DNA of 64,000 nt. Origin: a virus. The translations under genes and the position numbers were made by a program. Positions 13,832 through 31,900 of the stretch are shown here, one piece after another; positions within the stretch are counted from its first letter, which is position 1; the number at the start of each line of letters is the position of its first letter. The notes beneath the pieces were generated by a model. That model saw only the letters and a list, made by a program, of their open reading frames with translations, had not been told where the DNA came from and ran no database searches. The stretch lies in IMG/VR virus record IMGVR_UViG_3300043419_000459, positions 1 through 64,000 of that record. One strand, written 5' to 3'.

Positions 13832-16093
13832 TTATGCGTTAAATGCTGCTCCGGTTGGTAAGATGTTGAAATCAATTTGAATGAATTCAGCGGTCTTAGT
13901 TGGTTGTAAGTAGATAGCACCTTTCATAATGTTTCTATCAATTACATCAGGAGTATTATTTGAATCATCCATTACAACACGGAATGCGTACAAACCTTGT
14001 CTTTGTTGAATTGACTCTAAATAAGGGTTAACGATATTTAAGAATCTATTTCTTGTTTCAGAAGTATTTTGTTCAAATACTAAATATCTTGAAGTAGATG
14101 CGATATATTTTCTTACAGTTAACAACAATCTTCTCACATTGATTCTGTCTAATGCTGATGGTTTGTCTTGTAATGTTTTTTGTCCAAATACTACGATACC
14201 TTGTCCTGGGAATTGTACGATTGGGTTTACTTTACCTTCATATAATTCATCTTTTTCAGATTGAGTTAATCTATTCAATACACTAACTGCTCCTACCAAT
14301 CCACCTCTATTCAAACCTGCCGGTGCGAACCATTCTGCTGCTACTCTATCGTTTGCTGCGAATACACCTGGAAGTAATACTGATGGTGGAACTGTGATTA
14401 ATTTATTTGTATTAATATCGATTGTTTTAACCCAAGGATAATAAGTTGCTGCGTAGTTTGTGTCCAATTCACCTGCTTTAGTGATTGTTGTAGATAACGC
14501 TAAATCAGAATCACCCATTTCGGTAATGAAGAATGCGTCTGCTCTTTGTTCAACCATATCAACAATTGCAGTATGTATATATGAGTGGTCATTCTTCGTA
14601 ACACCAGGTGCTACAACCATATTGATATCAAATTCATCTGCATTTGATAAAGCGTTGATTGCTTTCATATATGCAATTGAACCGGATGCAGATGGTGATG
14701 ATAAATTAAATCCTTGTGTGTTTCCTGCAGAAATGTCTGAACCTTTGTAAATTGGAGTTGCTGGACTCATTCCGTCAAATCCATGTTGAAATGCTACAAC
14801 AAATTGTGCTCTAGAATCACCAACTACTAAATTATTTTGAGAAACCGTATCTAATCCAAATTCTGGATTAACTGCGTTTGATGCACCATTTGGAATCGGT
14901 CTCATATATAGTTTATTATCACTATTATTATCCAAATCTATACCAGGGAATAATGTTGAACCAGATTGTGCAACTGAACCAGTTGAGAATGATACAGGTG
15001 GTATCAATGATAACATTCCAGCTGAACCTGATACGATTGAATGATATGATTCGTGTCCGAATGGAACGGCTTGAACCGGTGCATTTACATTTAAATCTTT
15101 AATTCTAATATATTTTGAGTTATTAACCCAATCACCTGTTTCTGTTATTTTACCGAAAGAATCAATTGATAATTTTCTATCACCAATCACTCTACTAATA
15201 AAGTTTGGAGAATTAGGGTCTAAGTTTACGTTAGACCAAGTTTCTAATACAGTCTTTTTCTTATCAGTATCACCATATGCTCTAACAACTACCGTAAATG
15301 TTCCATAATCGGTACCATTTACACTACCAGCTGCTTTAATATTTGTAATACCAACTTTTATTTTTGTATTTGTAGAATTACCAACACCCAATGTTTCAAA
15401 TTGGAAAAGATTAAATCTTTGACCACTTATCAATTGTGATTCGATTATTGGAGTCTGTGCTTCTTGTGCATCCATTGTGAACGATTGGTTTCCTAATACA
15501 GATGCAGTTATTGAAACTCCACTTGCAAAATTTATAGCCGAACTATTTTTGAAGAATGCGTATGAATATGCCGTTTTAGCGCCAAATGGAGAAGTTCCAA
15601 ATACAGCTTCAATGTCATTTCCATCGGATGAATCTAAAGAAGCCGATATTGATAAACTTCCACTATCCGTTACTAATTTAAAAGTACCATCTCCTAAATC
15701 ATTTGCAGTGGTTGGTGTAGTTCCACCAAAACCAACATTATTATTGGTAGATGTATTAAATAAAATACCCAAACTAGCTGATACTGAACCCGATGTTGCT
15801 TTTAATAACAACGGTGCTACTTCGGTGTATCCACCAACTCCGGCTACTCTACAAATAGTTGCAGTTCCTGCTTCTCTTAAATAATTTTGTACTGCTAATG
15901 GGGTATAATATGTTCCATCAGCTGCTCCAAATAATTGTTCGAATTCAGCTTGTGAATTTACAATTGTTGGAACTACTGGTCCTTCATTGAAAGGGCCTAT
16001 GAATGCTGCACCTATTTCTGCTACACCTTGTTGTAAGAATGAAAGGTCGTTTTCTCTAGTGAAAACACCTGGTGATACCATTTTTTCTGCCAT
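13832..16093 (-). CDS. gp18: tail sheath protein (gp18-like)
   Basis: SPGVFTRENDLS, WFAPAGLNRG, VNPI..FPGQG.VVFGQKTL, LDRINVRRL and FEQN. Confidence 0.95.
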   Translation of the reverse strand: MAEKMVSPGVFTRENDLSFLQQGVAEIGAAFIGPFNEGPVVPTIVNSQAEFEQLFGAADGTYYTPLAVQNYLREAGTATICRVAGVGGYTEVAPLLLKATSGSVSASLGILFNTSTNNNVGFGGTTPTTANDLGDGTFKLVTDSGSLSISASLDSSDGNDIEAVFGTSPFGAKTAYSYAFFKNSSAINFASGVSITASVLGNQSFTMDAQEAQTPIIESQLISGQRFNLFQFETLGVGNSTNTKIKVGITNIKAAGSVNGTDYGTFTVVVRAYGDTDKKKTVLETWSNVNLDPNSPNFISRVIGDRKLSIDSFGKITETGDWVNNSKYIRIKDLNVNAPVQAVPFGHESYHSIVSGSAGMLSLIPPVSFSTGSVAQSGSTLFPGIDLDNNSDNKLYMRPIPNGASNAVNPEFGLDTVSQNNLVVGDSRAQFVVAFQHGFDGMSPATPIYKGSDISAGNTQGFNLSSPSASGSIAYMKAINALSNADEFDINMVVAPGVTKNDHSYIHTAIVDMVEQRADAFFITEMGDSDLALSTTITKAGELDTNYAATYYPWVKTIDINTNKLITVPPSVLLPGVFAANDRVAAEWFAPAGLNRGGLVGAVSVLNRLTQSEKDELYEGKVNPIVQFPGQGIVVFGQKTLQDKPSALDRINVRRLLLTVRKYIASTSRYLVFEQNTSETRNRFLNIVNPYLESIQQRQGLYAFRVVMDDSNNTPDVIDRNIMKGAIYLQPTKTAEFIQIDFNILPTGAAFNA

Positions 16094-16165
16094 TTTATAT
16101 GCTTTAATTTAAATTTATTAATTCTCAATATAAATATAATATTTCAACCCAAAACAACAATTATT

Positions 16166-17884
16166 TTATTTGTAGGTTGGTGAGAAATAGTTGTATATAT
16201 TTGTTATGTTTGTCGAATTTAATTGTGTGTTATAGAATAATACAGGTCCTAATTGTCCATTGAAATAATAGTTATTATCACCATACCCACCACCAACTTG
16301 AATTAAAGCAGATGTTGTGTAATCTTTTGAACCATTTGATACCGTTCCTCTTGATGTAGAATCCATATAAGCAACGTTTGTACCATTCAATGCTGCAGTA
16401 TAAGAAATCATATACCAAACGTTTGTAGATAGTGTAAATGTATTACTATTAAATTGTACAGATGTTCCATCATGTATGAAATAAGTACCACTACCATTTG
16501 AATTTAAATACAATGCAATTTCTCTTGTTCCACCACTATTTTGTTTACCAAAAATTTGATAATATCCATTTGCAGGATGTGATGTAAATCTAACCCAAGC
16601 TACAACCGAATATGCCGATGTATTGAATTGTGTATATCCACCATTTATGTTAGTCGTTCCATCTTTATACCAAAACTTATTTGATGATAATGACCAATAC
16701 TTTTCTTTTCTACTTGCTCCCGCATTATATGATGGATTACCACCACTTATTCCCGCTGCATTTGAAACACCTGCAGGTCTAACACCTGTATTGTATCCAC
16801 TTAAATCTAACCAATCCGCAGTATCTGTTCCACCAGTTGACAATGCTTTAGATGGGTCTAAATACATTCTTAAACCACTTGCAGGTATTGCTGGTTGTGT
16901 TGTTGTTCCTTTGTTGTGAGAAATTAAACCATTTGAAATATACACATCGGCATTTTCCACATTTACAGTTACAATTTCAACATCTTCTCTTACTATTTCT
17001 ATATCAACAACTTCAACTTCGGTTTCATCTTGCATTACCAATCTATCTCCAGGCAATATATCACCTACATTTTTGAATTTATATTTTCCAATCTCATTAT
17101 CCCAAACATATAATGGGTGAGTTTCGGTTGCTTTAATTAGACCATTATTAAGTGAGAAATATCCTTCTGCGAAATTAAAAGTCAAATCACTAACAGTTAC
17201 AATTTGTGCTGAACCTGATAATACTTCCGAATGATAAAATCTCCATTCAACTTCATCACTTTCCGGGTCTTGTGTTTCATCCGGTAGTCCTGCAGGTACC
17301 CAAGATTTAATTTGGTCACCAACATTCAAATCTTCAACATTTACCATTGTACCATTTGCCAATTCAATTTGTGTACCGAATAATAAACAAAAATCAGGTT
17401 CGTTAATAGTATTGTAAACATCTACTGCGTATAATACTTTTGTTGTTGCCGAACCATAGTTAGTAGCGTTTAGATTATATCCATCAGCATATGCCATAGT
17501 TAAAGTAGCCGATGCTTCCGAATATGTAGTCGTTCCTACTGCTGCCGGAGTTATTGGAAATATTGTTGGGCCATTTAATACAGTTCTACTACCTGTTGAA
17601 AAATTTGAATTATTAAAAGAACAAGTATAGTTATTATATTGTTGTTGTACTTTTGAATAAAACAAAGAACCCGTAGATGCAAACGTAAAATTTGCATTCT
17701 CAGTTGTACTTTCTACTATATATGTAAATGTAGGAGGTGTTACAGTAATCGAATCGGTTGCAAATCCTATCATAGAACTATTTGTAGCAGTTCCTGATAG
17801 TCCACCTAATGATACTTGTCCACTTCTTGCAGAACCACTAACGGCTCTAAATAAATTTCCTAATGATAAGTTTGTCCTTGGCAT
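16166..17884 (-). CDS. virion tip/adhesin-like protein with an internal Hint (intein-like) domain and a C-terminal LamG/ConA-like domain
   Basis: CLLFGTQI...TETHPL...NGLISHN Hint blocks, then a LamG-type segment YLD...WLDLSG...FNGQLG..FYN. Confidence 0.8.
   Translation of the reverse strand: MPRTNLSLGNLFRAVSGSARSGQVSLGGLSGTATNSSMIGFATDSITVTPPTFTYIVESTTENANFTFASTGSLFYSKVQQQYNNYTCSFNNSNFSTGSRTVLNGPTIFPITPAAVGTTTYSEASATLTMAYADGYNLNATNYGSATTKVLYAVDVYNTINEPDFCLLFGTQIELANGTMVNVEDLNVGDQIKSWVPAGLPDETQDPESDEVEWRFYHSEVLSGSAQIVTVSDLTFNFAEGYFSLNNGLIKATETHPLYVWDNEIGKYKFKNVGDILPGDRLVMQDETEVEVVDIEIVREDVEIVTVNVENADVYISNGLISHNKGTTTQPAIPASGLRMYLDPSKALSTGGTDTADWLDLSGYNTGVRPAGVSNAAGISGGNPSYNAGASRKEKYWSLSSNKFWYKDGTTNINGGYTQFNTSAYSVVAWVRFTSHPANGYYQIFGKQNSGGTREIALYLNSNGSGTYFIHDGTSVQFNSNTFTLSTNVWYMISYTAALNGTNVAYMDSTSRGTVSNGSKDYTTSALIQVGGGYGDNNYYFNGQLGPVLFYNTQLNSTNITNIYNYFSPTYK
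16913..17389 (-). other. Hint/BIL-type auto-processing domain (159 aa, Cys1 to His-Asn, +1 residue Lys)
   Basis: Block A C-L-x-x-G-T, block B T-x-x-H and block G S-H-N; no endonuclease domain. Confidence 0.8.
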
Positions 17885-17888
17885 ATTT

Positions 17889-18893
17889 TTATATATTATT
17901 CTCCCTATAAATATCTAAAAGTTTTTGTTTCCACACATCTTTGTTTCCAAAATATTGTATCATCCAATCTTTCAGTTTTTGAAACTCCGTTTTACGGGTT
18001 TCATAATCATCGTTACAAATCGTTTCGTAGGCTTGTTTAAATGTTTCCTTGTCAGTCGCTTTGTATTTATAATCAAGTGGTACGTGCCATCTTTCATGTA
18101 GTATTGGAAGTTTACCCCAATCCACTGCTTCAAAAATTCCGTATCCAAATGGTTCAAATTCAAAGCAAGAATGAGATATTCCCCAATCAAGTCCGTAGAA
18201 CTTTTCTTTATGTTTGTAATCAAATTTGTAAACTTTTGATTTTTCAAATTTGTATCCATATTTCTTTTTATAATATTTGTTGAATGTTTCTGAATTTGTG
18301 AAAATGTATCCACCCATTCCATCAATATATTCAACATTCTTTCTACCTTCTACTCTTGCTGCATATCCTATCTCCGTTGAGTTAGAAAGTTCTTTATTAT
18401 TTTTAAATTCATAATAATTTGGAATATGGTGTAAATTTTCTGTTTCATATGGAAAATGATACAACCCTACCCAAACTTTATTTTTAATTTTATTTATTAA
18501 CTGATTTTCATATTCCCAATTACCATACCAATGAAGGTATTCATCTTTACCCATCTGTGACAACATTGATACCTTTGTCAAATTATGAAATACGATTGAA
18601 TCGATTTTATCTAAATTATTATGTATGGCAGTTGTTGGAGTATAATGACCATGTAATATATGAATTTTTCTTGCACCTTTTAAAATTTCATCAATAACTA
18701 ACTCATTTGTTTCCCAAATGTGGTCAATATCAATTGGAAATTCTTCGTAATTATCTGGCTTCTTCCTATGGAAAAGAAGAAGTGGCTTAACTTCTAAGTT
18801 AGGAGCCACTTCTTTTATCCAATCAGTTACCCATATATCAGCACCGCTGTTGAACCAGGGTCCTCCAGCGGTGGTGTAGTATACATCATACAT
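17889..18893 (-). CDS. putative GT-B (GT4-like) glycosyltransferase
   Basis: ARVEGRKN and EPFGYGIFEAVDWGKLP (E-x7-E) motifs. Confidence 0.7.
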   Translation of the reverse strand: MYDVYYTTAGGPWFNSGADIWVTDWIKEVAPNLEVKPLLLFHRKKPDNYEEFPIDIDHIWETNELVIDEILKGARKIHILHGHYTPTTAIHNNLDKIDSIVFHNLTKVSMLSQMGKDEYLHWYGNWEYENQLINKIKNKVWVGLYHFPYETENLHHIPNYYEFKNNKELSNSTEIGYAARVEGRKNVEYIDGMGGYIFTNSETFNKYYKKKYGYKFEKSKVYKFDYKHKEKFYGLDWGISHSCFEFEPFGYGIFEAVDWGKLPILHERWHVPLDYKYKATDKETFKQAYETICNDDYETRKTEFQKLKDWMIQYFGNKDVWKQKLLDIYRENNI

Positions 18894-18896
18894 TAA

Positions 18897-21770
18897 TTAT
18901 AAACCTTTTTGTTTCTTTAATTCTTCTACTTGTGCAGTTAAATTATCGATTTGGATTTGTTGCTCTTTAATACCTTCAATTAATAATGCTACTAATTTTT
19001 CGTATTTAACCGCCTTATATCCATTATCTCTTGTAGTTACGATTTGAGGTAATACTTCTTCAATTTCTTGTGCGATTACACCCACATCGTTTCCTTCATA
19101 TCCGTGTACATCTTTTAATTCTGCTTTCCAATCATAAGTGTTACCACTAATCTTTTTGATTTTTTCAATTGGATTTTCGATTGGAGTGATGTTCTCTTTA
19201 AAGTTTCTATCTGAAGAAGAGTATGCCACAACATCATTTGCTGCGTCAATTCTACCAGATGTTCCACTTGCTGCCATGCCAACACCAATCGAAGCAAATC
19301 TAACATCACTAGATGTAGCTACTGCCTGGCCGATTGAGATTGTTACTGCTCCGGTTGCTCCACTTACTGTTACACCCGTACCTGCAACGTTTGATGTTAC
19401 ACCGGCGTTACTTAAAGTTACTGAACTTCCCAAAGCAACTGCTCCACCACCACTCAGACCAGTTCCTGCAGTTACAGTTACTGATGAGTTAGTTAATTTA
19501 GCATTTGCAATTGAACCAGCTAACATATCATTTGTAACACCACCAGATGCGATAGAAAGTGTTCTAGTTGCACTTATATCACCACCACCTGTTAAACCAC
19601 TACCTGCTGAAATTGATACTGCGGTGTGGTCGATATGTCTGTTTGCAGAATATCCAGTTGTTGAATCGTGTGCTATTTGTGATGAACCAGAAACTACTGA
19701 ATCACCACCTGTATTTAGGTATCTAGCATCGAATGTTGTAGTTAATTGTGAAGAACCACTAATTACACCATCTGCATCCAACTTACTCTTAATAGTTGTG
19801 TTGATTGAAGATGTGAATGATTCCAAATTAGCCGTTTCAACTTCTAATGCCGATAATCTTGTTAATGCTGAACCACTAAATGTATTTAAATTACTTACCG
19901 AAATGTTTACACTTGCAGAAGTTGATTCTAAATTATTTAATCTACCAACACTTGCAGTATAGAATGATGCAAATGCATTATCGTTTGTAGTATCTACCGA
20001 ATTAATTAAGGTTACGATTTCTGCAAATGTATCCTTATCTGCGTCTGCTGCTAATAAGATTGCGTCTACTCTACCTTTTTCGGTTGTAATTCTACTATCT
20101 ACTGATGTTGAATAATCTGAGAATCCGGTTGTTGAACTCAATGTTATTTGAGATGAACCACTTACTACTGAGTCTCCTCCTACATTTAAATATCTATCAT
20201 CAAGTGAGCTTGTTAATTGAGAAGAACCAGAAATTACACCATTTGTTGCTGCAATTGCTCCAGTAATAGAAGTTGCGATTATTCTACCATTAACCGCCAA
20301 TGAACCGGTTACAGATGTTATTGCTAAAGATGATGTACCAAATGAACTATTACCATTTGCGATTATACCACTATCTAAACTCAATCCATTACCAACATTA
20401 GTTAATGTACCTACTACCGTTCCTGCTGCTCCAACGAATTTAATTGAACCGGTTGAAATAAATAAATCTCTCCAAAATTTAGTCGAACTACCCAAATCAA
20501 ATGCATTAGATACTGATGGTAAAATCGAACCACTCATTGTTAATGACCCAGATATTTGTATACCACCTGCCTCTGCTAAAAATAAATCACTTCTATTAGT
20601 ATCACTTGTACCATTACCTATTACAAATAAAGATGTTGTATTATCAACAACGTTAAATTTACCTACTACCGATTGACCAACTGCCGATGCCTTTGTTCCG
20701 ATGCCAGATGCATGTGAATAATGTGCTTCAGCCCAAGAACCACTACCTTCGGCGTGTGAACCTGTTCCTTGTGCAATTGTTCTACTACCTTCAGCATGAG
20801 CGTGTTGACCAGTTGCCATAGAATACCAACCTTCAGAGTGGGCACCTCTTGCATTTGTCATTGTAAATTCACCTTCAGCGTGTCCATATTCATCATAAAC
20901 ATCAGTGTGGTTACCTTCAGCGTGTCCGCCACGTGCATTTGCATATACTACCGTAGATTGTCCTTCAACGTGTCCTGCTATAGCTTCAACGTATGTAGCA
21001 TATCCTTCGGCGTGTGCATATTCTGCAGTTGCTGTTGCTCTAGTAAATCCACCTTCAGTGTGAGATGAAGAACCCGATGCACTCGTACTATCTCCTTCTG
21101 CGTGTGAATATTCTCCATGTGCATGCGTATTATGTCCTTCGGCATGAGATGCAACTCCAGTTGCTCTAGCACGAAGTCCTTCGGCATGAGATATTTGACC
21201 GGTTGCTACCAAATCTTCACCACCATTTCTTAATGAACCAGTGATTCTTAATGAACCAGTTACAGATGTTATTGCTAAAGATGATGTTCCAAATGAACTA
21301 TTACCATTTGCAATCAATCCTGAATCCAATACCATCCCATTAGCTGCATTAGATAATGTACCTACTACCGTTCCTGCTGCTCCAACAAATTTAATTGAAC
21401 CAGTTGAGATGTAAAGGTCTCTCCAGAAATAATCTTCAGAACCTAAATCAAATGCATTTGTTACTGAAGGTATAAGTGATGAACTTAAAGATGCAACTAC
21501 ATTAACAGTGTCGGATGTATTATCACCGATTGTTAATTTTCCACCTAAAGTTAAATTACCCGCAATATTTGCATTTCCTGTGATGTCTAAACCGGAACCT
21601 GAAATTGCTCCAAAGTTTCCTGTGCTTCCTGTTCCAGAAGCTCCTAATACGATGTCGCCGTTGGGGCCGCCGACTACTAATGTTCCCAATGTGGTGTTCA
21701 CATATGGTTCTCCGAATGCTAACGAACCTGATTGTTGTGCGGTTGTCCCACGTCTAAATTTAAGTCCCAT
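18897..21770 (-). CDS. tail fibre with YadA-like HAEG repeats and a C-terminal peptidase S74 intramolecular chaperone
   Basis: N-terminal KFRRG..GEP..NT, 14-aa (S/A/G)HAEG repeats, and SSDRNFKENI...GVIAQE...YEKLVALLIEGIKE. Confidence 0.85.
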   Translation of the reverse strand: MGLKFRRGTTAQQSGSLAFGEPYVNTTLGTLVVGGPNGDIVLGASGTGSTGNFGAISGSGLDITGNANIAGNLTLGGKLTIGDNTSDTVNVVASLSSSLIPSVTNAFDLGSEDYFWRDLYISTGSIKFVGAAGTVVGTLSNAANGMVLDSGLIANGNSSFGTSSLAITSVTGSLRITGSLRNGGEDLVATGQISHAEGLRARATGVASHAEGHNTHAHGEYSHAEGDSTSASGSSSHTEGGFTRATATAEYAHAEGYATYVEAIAGHVEGQSTVVYANARGGHAEGNHTDVYDEYGHAEGEFTMTNARGAHSEGWYSMATGQHAHAEGSRTIAQGTGSHAEGSGSWAEAHYSHASGIGTKASAVGQSVVGKFNVVDNTTSLFVIGNGTSDTNRSDLFLAEAGGIQISGSLTMSGSILPSVSNAFDLGSSTKFWRDLFISTGSIKFVGAAGTVVGTLTNVGNGLSLDSGIIANGNSSFGTSSLAITSVTGSLAVNGRIIATSITGAIAATNGVISGSSQLTSSLDDRYLNVGGDSVVSGSSQITLSSTTGFSDYSTSVDSRITTEKGRVDAILLAADADKDTFAEIVTLINSVDTTNDNAFASFYTASVGRLNNLESTSASVNISVSNLNTFSGSALTRLSALEVETANLESFTSSINTTIKSKLDADGVISGSSQLTTTFDARYLNTGGDSVVSGSSQIAHDSTTGYSANRHIDHTAVSISAGSGLTGGGDISATRTLSIASGGVTNDMLAGSIANAKLTNSSVTVTAGTGLSGGGAVALGSSVTLSNAGVTSNVAGTGVTVSGATGAVTISIGQAVATSSDVRFASIGVGMAASGTSGRIDAANDVVAYSSSDRNFKENITPIENPIEKIKKISGNTYDWKAELKDVHGYEGNDVGVIAQEIEEVLPQIVTTRDNGYKAVKYEKLVALLIEGIKEQQIQIDNLTAQVEELKKQKGL
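20300..21470 (-). repeat. direct repeat of about 220 bp (approx. 20300-20520 and 21250-21470) flanking the HAEG-repeat domain
   Basis: NAFDLGS..FWRDL.ISTGSIKFVGAAGTVVGTL...IANGNSSFGTSSLAITSVTGSL occurs twice, with near-identical DNA stretches. Confidence 0.85.
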
Positions 21771-21869
21771 TTAGTTTACCTTTTTTTTAGTACGTTTATA
21801 AAATATTTTATAATACAACTATAAATATAGAAAGGTTTAGTAAATGTTATGAATTTTAAAAATTATATT

Positions 21870-22289
21870 TTAACATTGAAAATCTCCCGCATATTCTATT
21901 ATATATCCTTGAGCATTATCAATTCTCCATGTAGCACCATTTATATATACATAGTCGTATCCTATTAATACATTGGGATATTGGTCTACATAAACATATG
22001 CACCTTCTGCAAAATCAAAGGGGCCGATGTTTGAATAAAATGTTCTATTGCCAATAGTTGCATCACCACAAACTTCACCGAATGTATTTCCTCTACCACA
22101 ACCAGTATATGTGTTAAATATAACTTGTCCTTGCCAAAATTCATCCATTGAAATGGGATTTGAACCGTCTACACCATATGAAACACCATATGCTGCAGCT
22201 GCATTTGTCATGGTAATTGTTTGTGAAGGTGGTAAACTTCTATCTAAATTGAAATCTCTAAATGATATTTCTCCGTATGGTAGTGCCAT
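21870..22289 (-). CDS. putative fibre tip protein (MALP..G.IS N-terminal type)
   Basis: MALPYGEISFRDF...PISMDEFW N-terminus, a type often seen after S74 fibres; small beta-rich C-terminal domain. Confidence 0.55.
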   Translation of the reverse strand: MALPYGEISFRDFNLDRSLPPSQTITMTNAAAAYGVSYGVDGSNPISMDEFWQGQVIFNTYTGCGRGNTFGEVCGDATIGNRTFYSNIGPFDFAEGAYVYVDQYPNVLIGYDYVYINGATWRIDNAQGYIIEYAGDFQC

Positions 22290-22336
22290 TTATAATGTTA
22301 TTTTATATAAATATAACTTATAAATGATTTTTACAA

Positions 22337-23467
22337 TTATAAAAACTTTTCCAATTCTTTTATTACCATTTCTGATGTGATACGTTTGCTACATTCAAAT
22401 TCACGCTCAGTTCCTTTGTGTTCCGGACACCAATTCCAATCATTAATATCCAATTTATATCTATTAAAACATCCTTGACATACTTCATTGGGTGCAGTTA
22501 TTCTAATACAATCTTTCATTTCTGCCCATTCATATGAAAATCCACTAATTAATATGGTGGGGATATTTAAACTCCAACTTAACCAACTCAACCCGCTACC
22601 GATTCCAATAAATGCTTTGGATTTTAACATTTCATCCATAACTAATTCAATAGGGCCATTTGGGTGTTTTACTATACCATCTGGAAGTTTATTACCCATA
22701 TAGTTATCACCCTCTTTTGATAATAATTTTACATTATACCCTCTACCATTCAACCAATCTACTACATCTTGCCAGCCATTAGGGTTATTCCAAAATTTAG
22801 ATTGAGCGGTACCATGAATACCAATACATACTTGTTTTTTATAAGATGTGTATATATTTGGACGTATTTCTATATATTCTAATCCTAAAATATCAGAACA
22901 CATTTTTTGAAGTGTAACCTTTTTTGGGTCAGTTGGATTTTTAAATAAATTAATAGAGCTATTATCATTGTAAAATACACCTATACAATACATTGCATAT
23001 AAATCGGACACAATATCACCTGGTTTTATAAATTCTATATTAGCATAACCATCTAAAAATAATTCATTCATAAAAGTTGATACAATTAATTTACAATTAT
23101 GCTTTTTTCTAAATTCTTCTAAATACGGAAACCAAGCCAAAGTGTCACCCAATGATTTAGAATCCAATGCAATATAGACTTTTTTATTTTCCGCATTATA
23201 TGAATGTTCAAACCAAACGTTTTCATTTTCATATATTTTGATTTTCCAATTAATAAAATACTCTTTATTACATTTACACCAACAATTATTTTTAATATTT
23301 GTTGTATAAACAATATTGTCAGTATCGGTATCTATGAATTCAACTCTATATTGAGCTTCTTTGTTTCCTTTAATTTCTACAAAAGGGCCATTGACAAAGT
23401 GATAATAAACTTTGTTTTCTATATTTATTTTGTTATTTTTGTTTTTTATTAAATTATCATATATCAT
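22337..23467 (-). CDS. autotransporter O-heptosyltransferase-like (TibC/Aah, BAHT family) protein glycosyltransferase
   Basis: SLGDTLAWFPY, KFWNNPNGW, FIGIGSGLSWLSW, ISGFS and Cys cluster CQGCFN..WNWCPEH...FECSK. Confidence 0.8.
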   Translation of the reverse strand: MIYDNLIKNKNNKINIENKVYYHFVNGPFVEIKGNKEAQYRVEFIDTDTDNIVYTTNIKNNCWCKCNKEYFINWKIKIYENENVWFEHSYNAENKKVYIALDSKSLGDTLAWFPYLEEFRKKHNCKLIVSTFMNELFLDGYANIEFIKPGDIVSDLYAMYCIGVFYNDNSSINLFKNPTDPKKVTLQKMCSDILGLEYIEIRPNIYTSYKKQVCIGIHGTAQSKFWNNPNGWQDVVDWLNGRGYNVKLLSKEGDNYMGNKLPDGIVKHPNGPIELVMDEMLKSKAFIGIGSGLSWLSWSLNIPTILISGFSYEWAEMKDCIRITAPNEVCQGCFNRYKLDINDWNWCPEHKGTEREFECSKRITSEMVIKELEKFL

Positions 23468-24413
23468 TTAATTCAGGATTAAGTTTTTCTATTATAATTT
23501 GTTTAGTTGATTTTAAATCATCATCAATATAAGTTACCAAATCATTATCATCATATGTATTTAAATAAGTGTGTAGTTTCCTGAATATAGATGGTAATTT
23601 ATAACTCAATGCTTCTTTAATTGATAATGGATTTAATTCTAATTTAGAACTAAAATAAAACATATCACATGCTACGTAGAAAGTATCCACATCATCACGT
23701 TCTCCCCATATCACACAATTTTCAGGCTTATCATTCATTAATGGTTTCCAATAATCTTCAAAATTTATAGCTTGGTTACCAACAAAGTGGAATTTAATTT
23801 TATACTTTTCAAATTGTCTTGCTATTGCAAATACTTCACTTTGATTTTTACCCGGTGTAAACAATCCTACATTTAGTACATGCTTCCAAATTGGGTCTAA
23901 TTCTAATTCAACTTGTGCAACTTCCTTATCAAATGTATATTCTTCGATTGGATATTCCCATAACATAGTTTCAACACCAGTACCAATGAATTGTTGCCTA
24001 CTCCATTCAGATACCAAAACATATCTATCGGGTTGATAAATTATTTCATGTGGATTTGTAAATGAACTATGTGTAGTTACTACTATAAAGTAATTTCTAT
24101 TTTTTGTAAAAATTTGGTCTAAAATAAAAGGAGCTAAATGAAATTCTGGTATTTCCTGAAAATGTATGATGTCAGGGTTAGCTTGATTTATTACACTTAG
24201 TATTTCCGATTTATCATCTCCCAATGTATAAACCTTTACTATTGATTTTATTCTATTTTTTTGAACTACATATGTATCCCCACCACTATTATTTATTTCA
24301 ACAACTTCTATTTCAAAATCATTGATAAAGTGTTTTATTTGTTTGTATGTATATTGAGGTTGTCCACCAGTAGAAAGATGTGGACACACATAAAGTAACT
24401 TTTTTTTTCTCAT
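23457..24413 (-). CDS. GT4-like glycosyltransferase
   Basis: PHLSTGGQPQ, NVGLFTPGKNQ and ELNPLSIKEALSY (E-x7-E). Confidence 0.8.
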   Translation of the reverse strand: MRKKKLLYVCPHLSTGGQPQYTYKQIKHFINDFEIEVVEINNSGGDTYVVQKNRIKSIVKVYTLGDDKSEILSVINQANPDIIHFQEIPEFHLAPFILDQIFTKNRNYFIVVTTHSSFTNPHEIIYQPDRYVLVSEWSRQQFIGTGVETMLWEYPIEEYTFDKEVAQVELELDPIWKHVLNVGLFTPGKNQSEVFAIARQFEKYKIKFHFVGNQAINFEDYWKPLMNDKPENCVIWGERDDVDTFYVACDMFYFSSKLELNPLSIKEALSYKLPSIFRKLHTYLNTYDDNDLVTYIDDDLKSTKQIIIEKLNPELNDI

Positions 24414-24420
24414 ATTGTAA

Positions 24421-24452
24421 CAAACATACTAAATATATCTTACTTTTCCAAA
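24421..24452 (-). promoter_or_regulatory. consensus Bacteroidota promoter TTTG-N20-TATGTTTG
   Basis: Exact -33/-7 consensus 7 nt upstream of the GT4/BAHT gene pair. Confidence 0.7.
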
Positions 24453-27370
24453 TTTTCTACTCTATTTAATAATTCTTTTATAGATTCAATTAAAAGTGGA
24501 ACTATTTTTTCATATCTAACAGTCAAATAATTTTCACCTGATTTTGAATTATTATTTTCATCTCTATCAAATGGTGCAAATGCAACTGCTTCAGGTAATA
24601 CTTCTTCAATTTCTTGCGCAATTACTCCGACTTGTTTAGAATAATCGTTATATCCAAATTCCTCTGCTAATTCGTTTTGAGTATAGAATACACCATTTAT
24701 TTTTTGTAATTTAGATAATGCATCTGATATCTTTTCTATATCCTTTTTTAATCTCCTATCTGAATAGTATGCTGTGATGTTTCCGGTAGCTACGATTTCA
24801 CCAGCATTAGTAGTTGCTGCTGTTCCAACACCCAATGAATTTACTTGTGCATTTGAATTGGTGGTAAATCCACCATTTACTCCACTGGTTCCGCTGACAC
24901 CACTTGTTCCATTGCTACCTGGTGCACCATTAACACCACTTGTTCCATTGCTACCTGGTGCACCATTAACACCACTTGTTCCATTACTACCTGGTGCACC
25001 ATTAACACCACTTGTGCCACTTGTACCATTTCCACCATTAACGCCACTTGTTCCATTTCCTCCGTTAACTCCGGATGTGCCACTTGTTCCATTTCCTCCG
25101 TTAACTCCACTCGTACCATTAACACCACTTGTACCGCTTGTACCATTTCCACCATTAACTCCTGATGTTCCATTCGTACCCGGTGAACCATTAACTCCCG
25201 ATGTGCCACTAACTCCACTTGTACCTGGTGCACCATTAATTCCTGATGTACCATTTACACCGCTTGTGCCACTAACTCCACTAGTGCCGTTTAATCCGTT
25301 TATTCCACTTGTACCACTAACACCACTTGTGCCATTAACTCCATCAACTCCACTTGTACCATTTACTCCCGATGTGCCACTTGTACCATTAACTCCTGAT
25401 GTGCCACTCGTGCCACTAACTCCACTTGTACCATTTACACCGCTTGTTCCATTTACTCCGCTTGTACCGTTTACACCGCTTGTGCCATTTACACCGCTGG
25501 TGCCACTTGTACCACTAACTCCACTTGTACCATCCACACCACTTGTGCCACTAACTCCACTTGTACCATGTGTGCCACTTCCTCCACTTGTGCCACTCGT
25601 GCCACTAACTCCACTTGTACCATTTACACCATTATGACCACTTGTACCACTAACGCCGGATGTGCCACTTGTACCCGATTGACCAGTTAAATCTAAATTA
25701 CTTCTTGTTTTTACATTACCACTTGCATCTGCTACTAATATATTTGTTTCAGTCGTACCTTCTGAAATAATTACCGATAAACTACCTGATAATTGAAGTG
25801 AACCTGTGAACGAATGTGTGTCGTTTCCAAAATCACCATGTCTAGTTGAACCGCTAGTAAATAATATACTTGATGTTTGGTTAACGGTTGTCAAATTTGT
25901 AACAGTTAAATTTGTAATAGTTGTATTATTCAATTGTGCCGAAGAACTTATAATTCCGGCCGGTATTGAAGAAATGTCTGTATATACAATTTGTGATGAA
26001 CCTGATACTAATGTATGGGTTGCCGAAGCTACTTCCTCTTTACCTTCAAACGTAGTTAATAAACTATCATTGTAATCTGCAAATCCTGGTATTTCAAAAA
26101 CCGAACCAGCTGCGGTTGTTACATTTATTTGCCAGTTTGATATATTCTCTGTTGGGCCTGCACCTTCTTCAATTGATGTTACATTAACTTCAATATAACC
26201 GGTGGTATCATCATACGATATAACAATAGCTCTCATAAATCGTGTACCATCGTCTTCAACACCTATAATTGCTAATTGACCAGGTGTCCATTGTAATCCG
26301 GTTTCTATTTCAAATGTTTTAAGACCCACTGATATATCATTTATTGTAGTTGATGTAGTTGCAAATCTATCACTAACTCCATCTATACCACTAGTGCCAC
26401 TTGTACCACTCGTGCCATCTATTGCACTCGTACCACTTGTGCCACTCGTACCACTCGTTCCATCGACACCACTTGTGCCACTCGTGCCACTAACTCCACT
26501 TGTACCATTTACACCACTTGTTCCGTTTACTCCCGATGTGCCATTTACACCACTCGTTCCGTTTACTCCCGATGTACCACTTGTTCCACTTTCTCCACTA
26601 GTGCCACTTTCTCCACTCGTGCCACTAACTCCACTTGTACCATCGACACCACTTGTGCCACTTGTACCATCGACACCGCTTGTGCCACTTGTACCATCTA
26701 CTCCACTCGTTCCATTTACTCCACTTGTGCCATCAATACCACTCGTGCCACTTGTACCACTCGTGCCATCTATTGCAGACGTGCCACTCGTTCCACTAGT
26801 GCCACTTTCTCCACTCGTTCCACTAGTGCCACTTTCTCCACTAGTGCCACTTGTACCATCTATTGCGGATGTACCACTCGTTCCACTAACTCCCGATGTG
26901 CCATTAACTCCCGATGTGCCACTTGTTCCACTAACTCCACTTGTACCACTTTCTCCTTGTGGGCCTGCAACTGTGTTATATCCTAATTGTTTTGTTGTAG
27001 TATTATAAGTTACAACTGTTGTATTTGAATCGGTTGGTAATGTTGCTATTTTAACATCACCTTTTATGTCAACACTTCCGGTAAATTGATGTATATCGTC
27101 ATCCGTATCTCCAAACTTTGTAGAACCAGAAGTAAATGCCGCAGATGCCGTTACATATGTTACATGAAATTCGTTTGCAGTTATTATACCGGTTACATTT
27201 ACCGAACCATTTATTGTTTGATTTCCCGTAAATGTGTTAGAACCGGTTGTGGCCATACTGATTTCAGCTGCACCATTACCTACAACTAATGTGTTTTTGT
27301 CTGTATTGAATTCCAACTGACCTTGTGTAGTTACCGGTGTTTGTGTACTATTTAATATTAATGTTGCCAT
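24440..27370 (-). CDS. collagen-like (Gly-X-Y, GTS-rich) tail fibre with a C-terminal peptidase S74 chaperone
   Basis: Two long GTS/GVN/GVS triplet blocks, then [10 protein letters not shown]...GVIAQE...[15 protein letters not shown]. Confidence 0.85.
24880..25680 (-). repeat. 9/18-bp coding tandem repeat (Gly-Thr-Ser-Gly-Val-Asn), block 2
   Basis: Repeated ccacttgt(a/g/t) units on the + strand. Confidence 0.9.
26385..26955 (-). repeat. 9/18-bp coding tandem repeat (GTS-GVD/GES), block 1
   Basis: Repeated ccact(t/c/a)gt units. Confidence 0.9.
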
Positions 27371-27401
27371 TTACTTATATTATATTTCTTATAAATATCA
27401 A

Positions 27402-28232
27402 TTATATTCCAAAATCTAAATCTACTATTTCTGCAACTGCACATGCTACAAATAATTCTGCAAATGAACGTGGTGGGATGTTATTTCCATCCACATCATT
27501 TAATTGTGCAGTTGATAAATCTACTACCATTCCAGTCAATCCGGAACCATCACCAACGAAACTTATTGCCGTAACACTTCCACTTACATTAACTGAACCT
27601 GTAAATGTGTGAGTATCATCGGATGAATTACCGAAATTAGAACTACCACTTTCAAAAAGGACAGATGATGAAATTACAGAAATATTAAATTGTCTTGCAT
27701 TAACTGCTCCCAAAACTGTTAAGTCCGATGTTACACCCAAAGAACCACTTATTACACTAATACCATGATTAACGGTAAGTGTATCGTTTACTTGTAATGA
27801 ACCAAATGAACCAGTTAAAGTTGCTCTTAAAGAACCACTAATAGTTTGATTTCCTACAAATGTATTTGAACCCGTAGTTGCTGCATCCGTTGGGTTTACT
27901 GCCGCAAGTATTCTACTATCAAAACTTGCACTATCCGTAAAATATGATTGAGTAAATGAATTTAGTGGATTTAATATCGATATTATTTGTGAAGAACCAC
28001 TAACTACACCATTGGTTGCTGCAATAGAACCACTAAACGAATCCGCTATAATAGAACCTGTAATTACTGCATTTGTTGTTACAATAGTTTGAATCGATTC
28101 AACCGAACCTGATTTTTTAAAGTAAATTTTACCATCGTAGGTATTTACCGCTAATTCTCCTAAGTCTAATGAACCCGTACCAGGTACCTTTCCTGATAAC
28201 GCAGAACGTTTCAGTTGAACAATTGATGCCAT
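27402..28232 (-). CDS. fibre segment protein (N-terminal LKRS..GELAVNT domain)
   Basis: Mtd-N-like start; shared [16 protein letters not shown] and FG..DDTHTFTGS modules; ends DLDFGI. Confidence 0.7.
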   Translation of the reverse strand: MASIVQLKRSALSGKVPGTGSLDLGELAVNTYDGKIYFKKSGSVESIQTIVTTNAVITGSIIADSFSGSIAATNGVVSGSSQIISILNPLNSFTQSYFTDSASFDSRILAAVNPTDAATTGSNTFVGNQTISGSLRATLTGSFGSLQVNDTLTVNHGISVISGSLGVTSDLTVLGAVNARQFNISVISSSVLFESGSSNFGNSSDDTHTFTGSVNVSGSVTAISFVGDGSGLTGMVVDLSTAQLNDVDGNNIPPRSFAELFVACAVAEIVDLDFGI

Positions 28233-28264
28233 GTGGCCTTTTATTTAAGTTATTTAACAACAAA

Positions 28265-28280
28265 TGTAGTATATACTACA
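28265..28280. promoter_or_regulatory. perfect 16-bp palindrome TGTAGTATATACTACA
   Basis: Lies between the promoter-like motif (28283-28291) and the start at 28232. Confidence 0.4.
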
Positions 28281-28296
28281 AACATAAATATATTAT

Positions 28297-28330
28297 AAAA
28301 AGAAAAACCCCTACTATGAGGGGTTTCTAT
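28297..28330 (-). terminator. rho-independent terminator
   Basis: Minus strand reads AAACCCCT-CATAGT-AGGGGTTT-TTCTTTT. Confidence 0.75.
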
Positions 28331-28348
28331 TATAATTTTTTATGAATA

Positions 28349-28909
28349 TTAAAATTCTCCTGAATCTGGGCCAAATGATGCTGAAAGTTCTAATTGATAT
28401 AATCTACCATGAACCGAACCACTAAATGCTAATACATCACCAATTCCGTATAATGAACCACTAAATCCTTGTGCAGTTGTAATAGTTGCAATAGTTACAT
28501 CATTATATCTGAAATCTATTTGGTTTTCAGTTGTTGCAACTTTGTATAGAGAACCACTACCTTGAATGTATCCTATTGTTCCTGCAAATGGTTCCGAATT
28601 AAAATCGAAATCATCCGGTCTCATCGATGCAGTTACCCCTGTAATTCCTGCACCATCACCTACTAAGTAAGATGCCGATACTATCGATGCACTAACTGCT
28701 CCAGTAAGACTAATTGAACCCGTTACTTTCGCCCCAGCTACTACGAATTCTACTACCTCATCGGTTGAACCAGACTTGTGTAAGAACGCTTTACCATCAT
28801 AGGTATTTAACGCTATTTCACCTACCTGCAGCGATGCCGTTGTAGGAACCGAACCGGCTACACCTGAACGTTTCAGTAAAATCGATGATGTTGGATTATT
28901 TGTTGCCAT
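28349..28909 (-). CDS. short fibre segment protein (N-terminal LKRS..GEIALNT domain)
   Basis: Start is paralogous to 27402..28232; ends DSGEF. Confidence 0.7.
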   Translation of the reverse strand: MATNNPTSSILLKRSGVAGSVPTTASLQVGEIALNTYDGKAFLHKSGSTDEVVEFVVAGAKVTGSISLTGAVSASIVSASYLVGDGAGITGVTASMRPDDFDFNSEPFAGTIGYIQGSGSLYKVATTENQIDFRYNDVTIATITTAQGFSGSLYGIGDVLAFSGSVHGRLYQLELSASFGPDSGEF

Positions 28910-28936
28910 ATATTTCTATTTATTCTTTATTTATTA

Positions 28937-31900
28937 TTAATATGTTCCTCCGTCTATTATTGATATTCTTGTCTCAATTGATGAACTAAATGTAGTAAAT
29001 CCAGTAGTTGCAGTTATATCAATTTGTGATGAACCACTTACAACCGTTTCAACATCTAACTTAGTTTTGATTGTAGTATCAATTGAAGAAGTGAATGAAT
29101 TTAAACTTCCAGTTGATATTTCCAATAATCCCAATCTACTATCTTGTACCGCTTGTGATGCTGAGAATGATACATTTATTGAAGAACTTAATGATGTTAA
29201 ACTTGCCGCACTTGCACTAAATGAAGTTGCTACCGATGAACTGAAATCTCCAGTTACACTTGCAACACTTGCAGATAATTGAGTTATACTTGCATTACTT
29301 GCACTAAATTCTAATAAAATATTATCATTGTAATCACTATATCCAGCTAAATCTACAATATTGATTTGTGATGCTCCACTTACAACATTTTCAGCGTCTA
29401 ATTTAGTTTTAATAGTAGTGTTAATCGAAGAAGTAAATGAATTTAAACTTCCAGATGTAATTTCTAATAAATCTAATCTACCATTTTGTGTAGTTTGAGA
29501 AGTTGCGAATGAAGAACTCAATAATAATTGAGATGCTGCACTTGCACTAAACGATGTTGCCACCGAAGAACTAAAATCTCCTGTTACACTTGCTACACTT
29601 GCAGATAATTGATTTAAATTATATGCCGATTGTGAGAATGAAGTTGCTACCGATGAACTAAATTGACCAGTTACACTTGATACACTTGCAGATAATGCGT
29701 CTACACTTGCTACACTTGCACTAAAATTAGTTGCGATTGAAGAACTGAATGATGTGTATCCGGTTGTATCAGAAATTGTAATCTGAGACGAACCACTTAC
29801 TACACCATCACCACCTGCTAAAAGAACTTTACTTTCAGCTCCAGCTGCTCCCGCCTTCCAGTAATCATTTGTTGAATCCCAAAGTAAAGAGCCACTTACC
29901 GTATTAGGTGCAGTTGGGTCTTTAACTAATAATCCACCATTTGCTGCTCCTGTACCATTTAATTCAATAATGTTATCACCTAATTGAATTGTATTAGATT
30001 CTACCGATGTAGTTGTACCTTTAACAACTAAGTCGCCAATTACCACTACATTAGAACCAGTAAATTCAAATGCTGTTTTTAATGAAGCCGAATAAGTATT
30101 TAATGCTGCTACCGAAGTATTTAAACTTGCAGTTGTACCATTTATGTTAAATATTGAAGTATTTAAACTTGCACTTGTACTATTCAAATTACTTACTGAA
30201 GTATTTAAACTTGCAGTTGCTGAGTTAATATTGAATATTGAAACATCTACACTTGCAGATTTTAATTCTAAATTATCCAATCTAACATCTGCAGATTCTG
30301 TAAATGAGTTGATATTGAATAATGAAGTATTTACACTTGCAGAAGTTGATTCTAAATTACTTAACTTAACATTTGCGGATTGTGTAAATACATTTATATT
30401 AGATACCGATGTATTAACACTTGCAGAAGTTGATTCTAAATTACTTAATCTAACATTTGCAGATTGTGTAAATGTATTTTGATTTGCGTCTGCGATTGCT
30501 GCTGCACTTGCTGATGCTATCAAACTTCCACTTACGATTGCTATTTCACTAAATCTTTCGTTTGCAGATGCAGTAAATGCGTTTAATGCGTTTGTAGAAG
30601 TATTAGAAGATGTATAAGAATTTAATGCTGCAATTGATACATTTACACTTGCAGATGTAGATTCTAAATTTGTAAATCTAGTTAAAGATGAACCACTAAA
30701 TGTATTTAAGTTACTTATTGAAACATCTTGTGCGTCGTTTGTAGTCTTAGCAGTTGATGCTGAAACGATTAATGAACCACTTACAACTCCAATTTCTGTT
30801 AATCTAGTTAAAACTGACGAACTGAATGAATTTATATTAGAAACTGAAATATTAACACTTGCAGAAGTAGATTCTAAGTTTGTTAATCTAACATCTTGTG
30901 TGTCGTTTGTTGTTTTTGCAGTCGATGCTGATGCTATCAATGAACCACTTACAACTCCAATTTCAGTTAATCTTGTTTCAACTGAACCGGTATAAGTTGC
31001 TAATGTAGAATCTTTTGTTAATTGTGAACCACTAAATGTATTTAAGTTAGAAATACTTACATCTTGTGAATCATTTGTTGTTTTTGCAGCTGATGCTGAA
31101 GAAATCAACGAACCACTTACTACACCAATCTCTGTAAATCTTTCGTTTGCAGATGCGGTGAATGCGTTTAATGCAGTTGTAGATGTGTTTGAAGAAGTAT
31201 ATGAGTTTAAAGCTGCAATTGATGCGTTTACACTTGCAGAAGTTGTATTTAAATTACTTACCGATGTGTTTAAACTTGCACTTGTTGCTTCTAAACTTGA
31301 TAATCTTTGAGCTTGAGAACCACTATCAGTTGATAATGCGTTTAATCTTGCGTCAACCGATGTACTGAATGCTGTTACATTTCCAATTCCTACGATAGAA
31401 CCACTAATTACACCACTACCATTAACATAGATTGAAGAACCATTTGTTAAGTTTAATGATGAACTATTAGTTAAGTTCATATTAGAATCATTAACTGCTA
31501 CTGCCCCACCAAAGTTGGTAGAACCACTTACATTAACTGAACCACTTATGGTTTGAGTACCATAAAATACATTCGAACCGGTAGTTGCGTATGAACCACT
31601 CTTTGAGTTTAAGTTATCTAATGATAATTGTTGTGACGCAGATGAACTATTTAATGCTGCGATTGATACATTTACACTTGCAGATGTAGATTCTAAGTTA
31701 GATAATCTAGTTAAAGAAGAACCACTAAATGTGTTTAATGCATCAATACTAACTTGTTGAGATGCAGATGAACTATTTAGCGCTGCTACTGAAGTATTTA
31801 AACTTGCAGTTGTACTATTTAAATTACTTAACGAAGTGTTTACACTTGCACTAAATGTATTTAAGTTTGTTATTGAAACGTCTTGTGAATCATTTGTTGT

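Follow-up and report, generated by a model that had tools for sequence, protein, structure and literature searches.

We analysed the first 64 kb (positions 1 to 64,000, hereafter the window) of the 101,470-bp IMG/VR virus record IMGVR_UViG_3300043419_000459, which is estimated to be 54% complete, and within it a block of seven genes that combines tail fibres with glycosyltransferases. The best explanation of the block, which we regard as reasonably probable, is that P0003, a homologue of the TibC/Aah protein O-heptosyltransferases, and the glycosyltransferase family 4 (GT4) enzyme P0004 glycosylate the collagen-like tail fibre P0001, and that another transferase, P0005, probably acts on a tail protein. 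Direct support comes from the gene identities, the conservation of catalytic residues, the family branch to which P0003 belongs, the gene linkage and the co-occurrence of enzyme and repeats; from these we infer that transfer takes place at all, which protein receives the sugar, what the donor is and how the fibre is affected. The terminase, sheath and head genes of the record mark a T4-like myovirus, whose nearest cultured relatives by terminase are Flavobacterium phage immuto (53% identical) and Microcystis phage Mel-JY01 (51%). No near-identical DNA was found among deposited phages. The GC content is about 32%, and nearly all genes lie on the minus strand of the record.

A TibC/Aah-family enzyme paired with a GT4 enzyme beside a collagen-like fibre

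The assignment of P0003 was evaluated using curated family models and alignment to a crystal structure. P0003 scored 290.4 bits against the NCBIfam equivalog TIGR04414 (curated cut-off 200), with the same score in a search of the genome, and the N-terminal beta-barrel TibC_1st (PF21129) was recognized in residues 22-81 with 33.2 bits (cut-off 27). In addition, residues 19-368 align to the TibC crystal sequence 4RAP with an E value of 1e-52, confirming the TibC/Aah-like identity that an earlier note, made from this DNA without database searches, had given the gene. The catalytic base Asp-110, the donor contacts and the iron-finger cysteines of TibC were defined from its structure (PMC4358343). 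Asp-110, Thr-226, Lys-230 and Trp-305 of TibC correspond to D108, T220, K224 and W295 in P0003, and the iron-finger residues Cys-339, 342, 358 and 370 correspond in the alignment to C330, C333, C347 and C359, which form a predicted iron site. The comparison with TibC proposed in the same note extends to all four cysteines, and these, like the catalytic and donor-contact residues, are invariant in 11 phage and 3 bacterial enzymes. At N-S-G-G and T-S-A-A, TibC modifies Ser but leaves Thr untouched, and it accepts peptides in vitro (PMC4358343); by analogy, this chemistry would be compatible with a Gly-X-Ser acceptor. The gene is abundant, with 3851 protein clusters matching at E <= 1e-10.

The candidate acceptor is the fibre P0001, which matched Pfam Collagen with 200 bits and carries a C-terminal Peptidase_S74 domain (55.1 bits, cut-off 22), in agreement with its description in the earlier note as a collagen-like GTS fibre. 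It contains 149 Gly-X-Y triplets, arranged in runs of 11, 9, 38 and 91, among which 77 are GTS and 97 have Ser at Y. The triple helix of P0001 is putative, because proline occurs in just 6 of the 149 triplets.

P0004 exceeded the cut-off of Pfam Glycos_transf_1 (29.1 against 26.4 bits) and carries an EX7E motif at residues 259-267, so that its earlier GT4 assignment stands. The overlap between the GT4 and TibC-like genes was seen here and in about 40 relatives, and the two enzymes form a single fused protein in Mel-JY01 and in viral locus L048. The GT4/TibC-like pair was found in 47 further viral loci, mostly at another genome position: its usual place is 3' of a giant fibre (with S74 seen in 15 loci) and 5' of the head polyprotein and terminase, where a sugar O-methyltransferase and the GT4 together form a fused protein of 723 aa. 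Moreover, rfaE-like kinase and adenylyltransferase genes lie directly 3' of the TibC-like gene in 29 of 46 related loci. The pair in the window is without the methyltransferase part and is placed between two distal S74 fibres. The layout varies in other genomes: in relatives the TibC-like enzyme follows a giant S74 fibre, in L048 it lies 3' of a collagen fibre and 5' of the sheath, in L046 it has two collagen proteins as neighbours, and in Mel-JY01 it follows a structural protein. The GT4 and TibC-like enzymes are 62-78% identical to those of relatives and the terminase 67-69%; the divergence of the cassette matches that of the terminase, and therefore its position reflects rearrangement, and recent horizontal import was not supported.

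The fusion in Mel-JY01 (PP395634.1 4750-8430, L049), the sole cultured phage that carries the enzyme, joins a GT4, an FkbM-like part and a TibC-like enzyme in one 1226-aa protein, for which the database name is only "methyltransferase FkbM". In two loci (L024:3456-5465 and L040:3468-5465), a 665-669-aa radical SAM/SPASM protein lies between the fibre and the GT4/TibC-like pair, together with an uncharacterised protein of 482-529 aa.

Association of the enzyme branch with Gly-(S/T)-S repeats

In a tree of 79 enzymes of the TibC/Aah family, a branch of 100% support parts a classical bacterial clade from the rest. The classical clade comprises 53 rows, 34 of which have an AIDA-like autotransporter nearby and none of which has a GTS-repeat neighbour. 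Almost all phage enzymes, P0003 among them, fall into a second clade (96% support) together with nine bacterial enzymes from Polaromonas, Burkholderiaceae and Methylococcales assemblies, to which the group of P0003 is sister (support 91). Each of these nine adjoins a small lipoprotein or secreted protein with (GTS/GTA)n collagen repeats that passes the Pfam Collagen threshold, and the bacterial genes are set among chromosomal housekeeping genes (DEAD-box helicase, SmpB, SpoU methylase). Furthermore, a repeat was present within 3 kb at 10 of the 16 bacterial loci of the phage-type branch compared with 0 of 64 classical loci (Fisher p = 5e-9). No autotransporter was found in the window or at any locus of the phage-type branch. 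The bacterial two-gene module, a lone TibC-like enzyme with a (GTS/GTA)n protein, can be seen for example at L153:7133-7441(-), L155:4844-5794(+), L156-L162 and L164.

Co-occurrence was assessed in 45 viral records chosen solely by a (GTS)x5 DNA pattern and in 35 controls chosen by an arbitrary 14-mer. The enzyme was present in 21 of the 45 and in 2 of the 35 (odds ratio 14, p = 4.5e-5), the latter corresponding to about 6% of random larger viral records. The two enzyme-positive controls themselves had 183 and 96 Gly-(S/T)-(S/T) run matches, compared with 0 in three large negatives. Such runs were also present in all five enzyme-positive phage genomes read, namely this record, two complete relatives of about 270 kb, a 102-kb relative and Mel-JY01, and none was found in the structural 80 kb of the enzyme-negative immuto. 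These results suggest that this enzyme branch works on Gly-X-Ser repeats. More broadly, we give an even chance to the view that P0003 represents a separate and widespread branch of the TibC/Aah family whose natural substrate is the proline-free Gly-X-Ser collagen-like repeat of phage fibres and small bacterial lipoproteins, where O-heptosylation of the Y serines would replace hydroxyproline in holding the triple helix and would sugar-coat the fibres of many aquatic phages.

The earlier note had proposed dedicated transferases for each of the two fibres in the block. For P0003 and the GTS fibre, this is well supported by the branch and the co-occurrence; for P0005 it is not, the connection with its fibre being one of linkage only.

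Gene block, probable transcription units and sugar island

The genes of the block follow one another on the minus strand in the order P0001, P0004, P0003, P0006, P0002, P0005 and P0007, after which comes the sheath gene (Table 1). All seven open reading frames (ORFs) reported in the earlier note were recovered at their coordinates and on that strand.

Table 1. Positions of genes, domains and promoter-like motifs in and around the fibre-glycosyltransferase block (aa, amino acids; nt, nucleotides).
Feature	Position in window	Strand	Basis or remark
P0001, collagen-like S74 tail fibre, 976 aa, proposed acceptor	24440..27370	-	Pfam Collagen, Peptidase_S74, many PHROG tail-fibre families
P0001, first collagen-like stretch, residues 136-315, three Gly-X-Y runs	26426..26965	-	
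P0001, second collagen-like run, residues 563-835, 91 triplets	24866..25684	-	
P0001, S74 intramolecular chaperone domain, residues 870-929	24584..24763	-	Pfam
P0004, GT4 glycosyltransferase, 318 aa	23457..24413	-	Pfam; 11-nt overlap with P0003; no promoter-like motif of its own
P0003, TibC/Aah-family protein O-heptosyltransferase homologue, 376 aa	22337..23467	-	TIGR04414, TibC_1st, 4RAP alignment
P0006, 139 aa, called a tip protein in the earlier note	21870..22289	-	
P0002, HAEG S74 tail fibre, 957 aa	18897..21770	-	Pfam, PHROGs
P0002, HxEG repeats, 12 copies, period 14, residues 195-366	20673..21188	-	
P0002, S74 chaperone domain, residues 853-911	19038..19214	-	Pfam
P0005, predicted GT-B (GT4-like) glycosyltransferase, 334 aa	17889..18893	-	Model fold; starts 3 nt past the P0002 stop; no promoter-like motif of its own
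P0007, 572 aa, Ser/Thr-rich N-terminal part, Hint-like middle (16910-17389) and LamG (16205-16639)	16166..17884	-	
Tail sheath, bounding the module	13832..16093	-	Library match; promoter-like motif at 16129
Motif ATATTTATA, 20 nt before the P0001 start	27390..27397	-	
Motif ATATTTATA, 17 nt before P0006	22306..22313	-	
Motif ATATTTATA, 50 nt before the HAEG fibre P0002	21820..21827	-	
Motif ATATTTATA, inside the 3' end of P0005, 22 nt before P0007	17906..17913	-	
Motif ATATTTATA, before the sheath gene	16129	-	

An 8-mer that reads TATAAATA on the plus strand and ATATTTATA on the coding strand occurs in 23 copies in the 101-kb record. Seventeen of the 23 lie in intergenic DNA, which makes up 2.5% of the record, at 4-50 nt 5' of the start codons of structural genes. 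The motif precedes fibre, sheath and head genes and does not precede P0004, P0003 or P0005; we infer that ATATTTATA would be the late promoter of the phage. It looks related to the T4 late box TATAAATA, on the opposite strand, and further positions in the window include 2579, 9169, 13811, 35261, 39639, 49666, 52554 and 59535. A scan for sigma-70-type promoters performed no better than on shuffled sequence, and no terminator-like site was found within the block. The sole terminator-like hairpin between 13.5 and 29.5 kb (28303-28328) is located upstream of the block, between genes for 186-aa and 276-aa proteins of the fibre chain. Because of the motif placement and the absence of a terminator-like site in the block, the likely transcription units are P0001-P0004-P0003, P0006, P0002-P0005 and P0007. 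The motif placement suggests that P0003 is co-transcribed with the fibre P0001, and it seems to us fairly probable that the block as a whole holds late, virion-linked glycosylation genes.

In the second half of the block, P0002 has a C-terminal Peptidase_S74 domain (56.7 bits, cut-off 22), and this domain together with the 12 HxEG repeats corroborates its description as a HAEG fibre. P0006 had no match in Pfam, PHROGs or NCBIfam, and the protein atlas returned just unnamed viral clusters, so the label of tip protein found no support in any library searched; a homologue (38% identical) precedes a fibre in viral locus L119. For P0007, the LamG part of the proposed Hint-LamG architecture was upheld by a C-terminal Laminin_G_3 match (E 4e-12). 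The Hint part was not: all Hint-clan profiles stayed below threshold (Hint_2 E 0.001, Intein_splicing E 0.009), Hint-type motifs (C166, TETH at 253, SHN at 322-324) are what speaks for it, and no sequence in the PDB matched this part. The tip role that the earlier note gave to P0007 was likewise not supported.

P0005 matched no model in Pfam, NCBIfam or PHROGs. Modelling without an alignment gave a predicted local distance difference test score (pLDDT) of 41, and an alignment of 30 homologues was used instead. The resulting AlphaFold model (pLDDT 83.6) is predicted to adopt a GT-B fold of the GT4 type (Foldseek probability 1.0, template modelling score 0.6-0.73). This predicted fold and the E247-x7-E255 (EX7E) motif, which is invariant among the homologues, are consistent with the GT-B enzyme that the earlier note had seen here.

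The order of fibre, P0005, LamG protein and sheath was constant in all 80 related viral loci, and P0007 comes after P0005 in all relatives. Across these loci P0005 is 80-88% identical and the fibres 34-83%, and most of the loci have no GT4 or TibC-like gene between fibres. P0005 is a core gene of this phage lineage. Its linkage suggests a tail-related role, perhaps tied to the LamG protein, and it probably acts on a tail protein, either the fibre or the LamG protein. A search without a positive control did not find P0005 in two complete enzyme-positive relatives, and no TibC-like gene was found in four fragments of the P0005 lineage, which are 13-37% complete. The sole deposited P0005 homologue (36% identical; LR756508.1 128867-129889, L233:12001-13020) belongs to an uncultured, unrelated 484-kb phage. 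There it adjoins a LamG-containing protein, not a fibre, and lies in the structural region, five ORFs upstream of the head polyprotein.

The earlier note had read the block as a unit of fibre, transferase and tip protein repeated twice. The gene order of the two parts is similar, but the unit did not arise by duplication: P0004 and P0005 (E = 7) and P0006 and P0007 (E > 1) have no detectable resemblance, and the fibres are alike in the S74 end only. A tandem duplication was rejected, and the two halves of the block have separate histories.

The tripeptide (S/T)-G-S was considered as a possible sequon of P0003. It is over-represented several-fold in virion proteins only (window 13832-16093, 27402-33811, 39666-40889), with observed against expected counts of 18 vs 4.2 in the HAEG fibre, 38 vs 8.1 in a 1624-aa protein and 6 vs 1.0 in the sheath. 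The same enrichment was seen in fibres and sheath of immuto (NC_055915.1 85-100 kb, 135-149 kb), which has no TibC-like gene, and the sheath and capsid of Mel-JY01, where the enzyme is present, are not enriched. Because of these two results, we do not take the tag for the recognition site of the enzyme; it was rejected as a specific sequon and would call for some other explanation.

A sugar island spans 59.5 to about 82 kb of the record (G000 59545-81710) and runs past the end of the window. It encodes three SDR epimerase/dehydratases, an RmlC-like epimerase, E1-like subunits dependent on thiamine pyrophosphate, two radical SAM enzymes, an HAD phosphatase, two GT7-like transferases, a GT2 and a methyltransferase, and it could feed the GT4 enzyme or P0005. 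The island fills the site where relatives have the GT4-methyltransferase, TibC-like and rfaE-like genes. The site is flanked by a giant fibre-like ORF (81707-87223) on one side and the head polyprotein on the other, and it seems to be a position at which glyco-islands vary. One island gene (G000 74015-75433, L130:15015-16433) encodes a beta-4-galactosyltransferase-like (GT7) enzyme fused to LamG, and the second GT7-like gene adjoins it.

Proposed mechanism, alternatives and known systems

In the mechanism that we propose, P0001, P0004 and P0003 would be made from one late transcription unit. P0003 would then move, in the cytoplasm, a nucleotide-activated heptose or a close analogue onto serine hydroxyls of the Gly-X-Ser triplets in the nascent fibre, for which P0001 offers 97 candidate serines, and the GT4 enzyme, as its fixed partner, would add or extend a second sugar. 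The sugar coat may stabilise the nearly proline-free triple helix, and it may shield or tune the fibre surface. The HAEG fibre is followed by P0005, a putative retaining-type GT-B enzyme probably acting on the fibre or the LamG protein. This proposal is easy to test because Escherichia coli already makes ADP-heptose.

Tail fibres set which bacteria a phage infects and are usually taken as plain protein. If fibre glycosylation by P0003 is true, host-range prediction, structural models and the expected antibody and protease sensitivity of fibres in this common group of freshwater and marine phages would need revision. Moreover, the TibC/Aah family, known only from pathogen adhesins, would gain a second natural substrate class and, with it, an acceptor of a new type; the glycosylated fibres would also represent a novel form of virion modification and provide a simple route to glycosylated collagen-like materials.

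Several observations weigh against fibre glycosylation by P0003. Arg-286 of TibC hydrogen-bonds adenine N1 of ADP-heptose, and its alanine mutant cripples the enzyme (PMC4358343). This residue is retained in three enterobacterial enzymes and is absent from all enzymes of the phage branch and from the bacterial relatives inspected, being Val-276 in P0003 and V, L, I, T or G in other phage enzymes; because it is missing, the donor nucleotide of P0003 is uncertain. In addition, no GmhA or HldE-type genes were found in the 101-kb record, and no GmhA was found in the complete relatives. For want of these genes the island is not a heptose source, and the suggestion in the earlier note that the 59.5-64 kb cluster supplies the donors does not hold for the heptose pathway. 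The enzyme was not seen in 24 of the 45 GTS-run records, although most of these 24 are fragments. Adjacency of enzyme and GTS fibre is not the rule either: of 47 viral loci, 44 have no GTS run at a distance of up to 8 kb from the enzyme, the locus edge there cutting through the giant fibre gene, and GTS fibres are located 40-60 kb from the enzyme in the complete genome G002. Furthermore, the known substrates of the family are beta-helices read as strand-loop-strand, not collagen-like chains, and hypervariable fibre regions of aquatic myophages gather glycosyltransferases generally (PMC7029224).

The last point belongs to the published view of fibre-region glycosyltransferases and rfaE in pelagimyophages and cyanomyophages (PMC7029224), according to which such enzymes remodel the host surface. 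Here they would alter the lipopolysaccharide (LPS) core or O-chain, or surface proteins, to block superinfection or aid release, and their place beside fibres would reflect accumulation in a hypervariable region. The 22-kb sugar-nucleotide and transferase island and the shifting position of the cassette between relatives agree with this. We nevertheless consider it quite improbable: P0003 retains the beta-barrel and iron finger, the parts that TibC uses for assembling its ring and recognising the protein substrate, whereas LPS heptosyltransferases reach only about 20 bits against it. The branch is also linked to GTS-repeat proteins in bacteria with no phage involved, co-occurrence with GTS fibres is 14-fold over random, and the genes appear to lie in late units with structural genes. 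A target inside the virion other than the GTS runs, such as the beta-roll repeats of the HAEG fibre or the (S/T)-G-S tags spread across sheath, fibres and head proteins, is somewhat easier to imagine, and we still regard it as unlikely. The bacterial enzyme gene directly precedes its substrate gene, and here P0006 and the HAEG fibre come next; the HAEG beta-roll repeats resemble strand-loop-strand, the tag is enriched in virion proteins only, and a GTS run within 8 kb is lacking in most close relatives. Yet immuto, a phage with no such enzyme, shows the tag enrichment to the same degree, the sheath and capsid of Mel-JY01 do not show it, the upstream giant fibres of relatives have no HxEG repeats, and the statistical link is to Gly-(S/T)-S runs.

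Two further explanations concern single enzymes. P0005, and possibly the GT4 enzyme, might modify phage DNA in the manner of T4 alpha-glucosyltransferase (AGT), unconnected to fibres; a DNA alpha-glucosyltransferase cluster scores 0.97 (rank 25) in a feature search of the atlas, and T4 AGT structures are among the fold matches (rank 14). This is very improbable, since AGT is one of hundreds of GT-B matches, the better ones being GT4 enzymes that act on sugars, lipids and small molecules, and Pfam AGT gave no match. P0005 moreover starts 3 nt past the fibre stop, has no motif of its own and is flanked by fibre and LamG protein in all 80 relatives, and in other phages the GT4 forms one protein with the TibC-like enzyme, which is protein-specific. 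The loss of Arg-286 across the branch and a fragment devoid of a heptose pathway would also fit a P0003 that has lost its transferase activity and, as a ring, binds repeat proteins or helps to assemble them, similar to the family member BimC, described mainly as a partner of BimA. To this we attach hardly any probability, as neither the catalytic base nor the residues that bind phosphate and sugar vary among phage and bacterial members, and sugar-activating genes and further transferase and methyltransferase domains accompany the enzyme. Glycosylation of P0001 by P0003 and the GT4 enzyme therefore stays our preferred explanation.

A full-text literature search returned no paper on a phage TibC/Aah-type enzyme, nor on such an enzyme with a collagen-like partner. 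Virion glycosylation is known from mycobacteriophages (Freeman et al. 2023, Cell Host Microbe 31:1216, reference 80 in PMC12582341). There, glycosyltransferases encoded by the phage reportedly act on its structural proteins while these are still unassembled in the cytoplasm. The targets in that work are said to be the C-termini of capsid and tail-tube proteins, not fibres, in phages of actinobacterial hosts. Its enzymes reportedly belong to other families, with no heptosyltransferase and no collagen-like acceptor. In the exosporium of Bacillus anthracis, BclA forms a collagen-like Gly-X-Y filament with GPT repeats and Thr-linked, rhamnose-based glycans, and giant viruses have glycosylated collagen-like fibrils, with glucose linked to hydroxylysine in Mimivirus. 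These systems have in common with P0001 a collagen-like filament on the particle surface; in them, O-linked sugars sit on hydroxy-amino acids of the repeat, as is here proposed for P0001. They differ in that the enzymes are unrelated and in that here Y is Ser and proline is nearly absent. Pelagimyophages and cyanomyophages (PMC7029224) are likewise aquatic T4-like phages that mix transferase genes and rfaE with fibre genes. In those phages, however, GT8 is the main family and is read as modifying the host O-chain, and neither a TibC-type enzyme nor a link to collagen-like repeats is described.

The closest known system is that of TibC-TibA and Aah-AIDA-I in E. coli (TIGR04414; 4RAP/4RB4; PMC4358343), where multiple Ser residues with small neighbours become O-heptosylated. 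P0003 belongs to the same family by curated score and shares with it the beta-barrel, the GT-B core, the catalytic Asp, the Thr/Lys/Trp donor contacts and the four iron-finger cysteines. In both cases the enzyme is cytoplasmic, and its gene lies next to that of a highly repetitive surface protein rich in serine. Unlike TibC and Aah, P0003 is placed in a separate branch of the tree, and its partner is a phage fibre, or in bacteria a small Gly-X-Ser collagen-repeat protein, instead of an autotransporter beta-helix. In the phage branch, Arg-286 has given way to non-basic, mostly aliphatic residues and Pro-300 of TibC to Gly. Finally, the phage enzyme is steadily paired or fused with a GT4, often together with a sugar O-methyltransferase, and it is virus-encoded and apparently expressed late.

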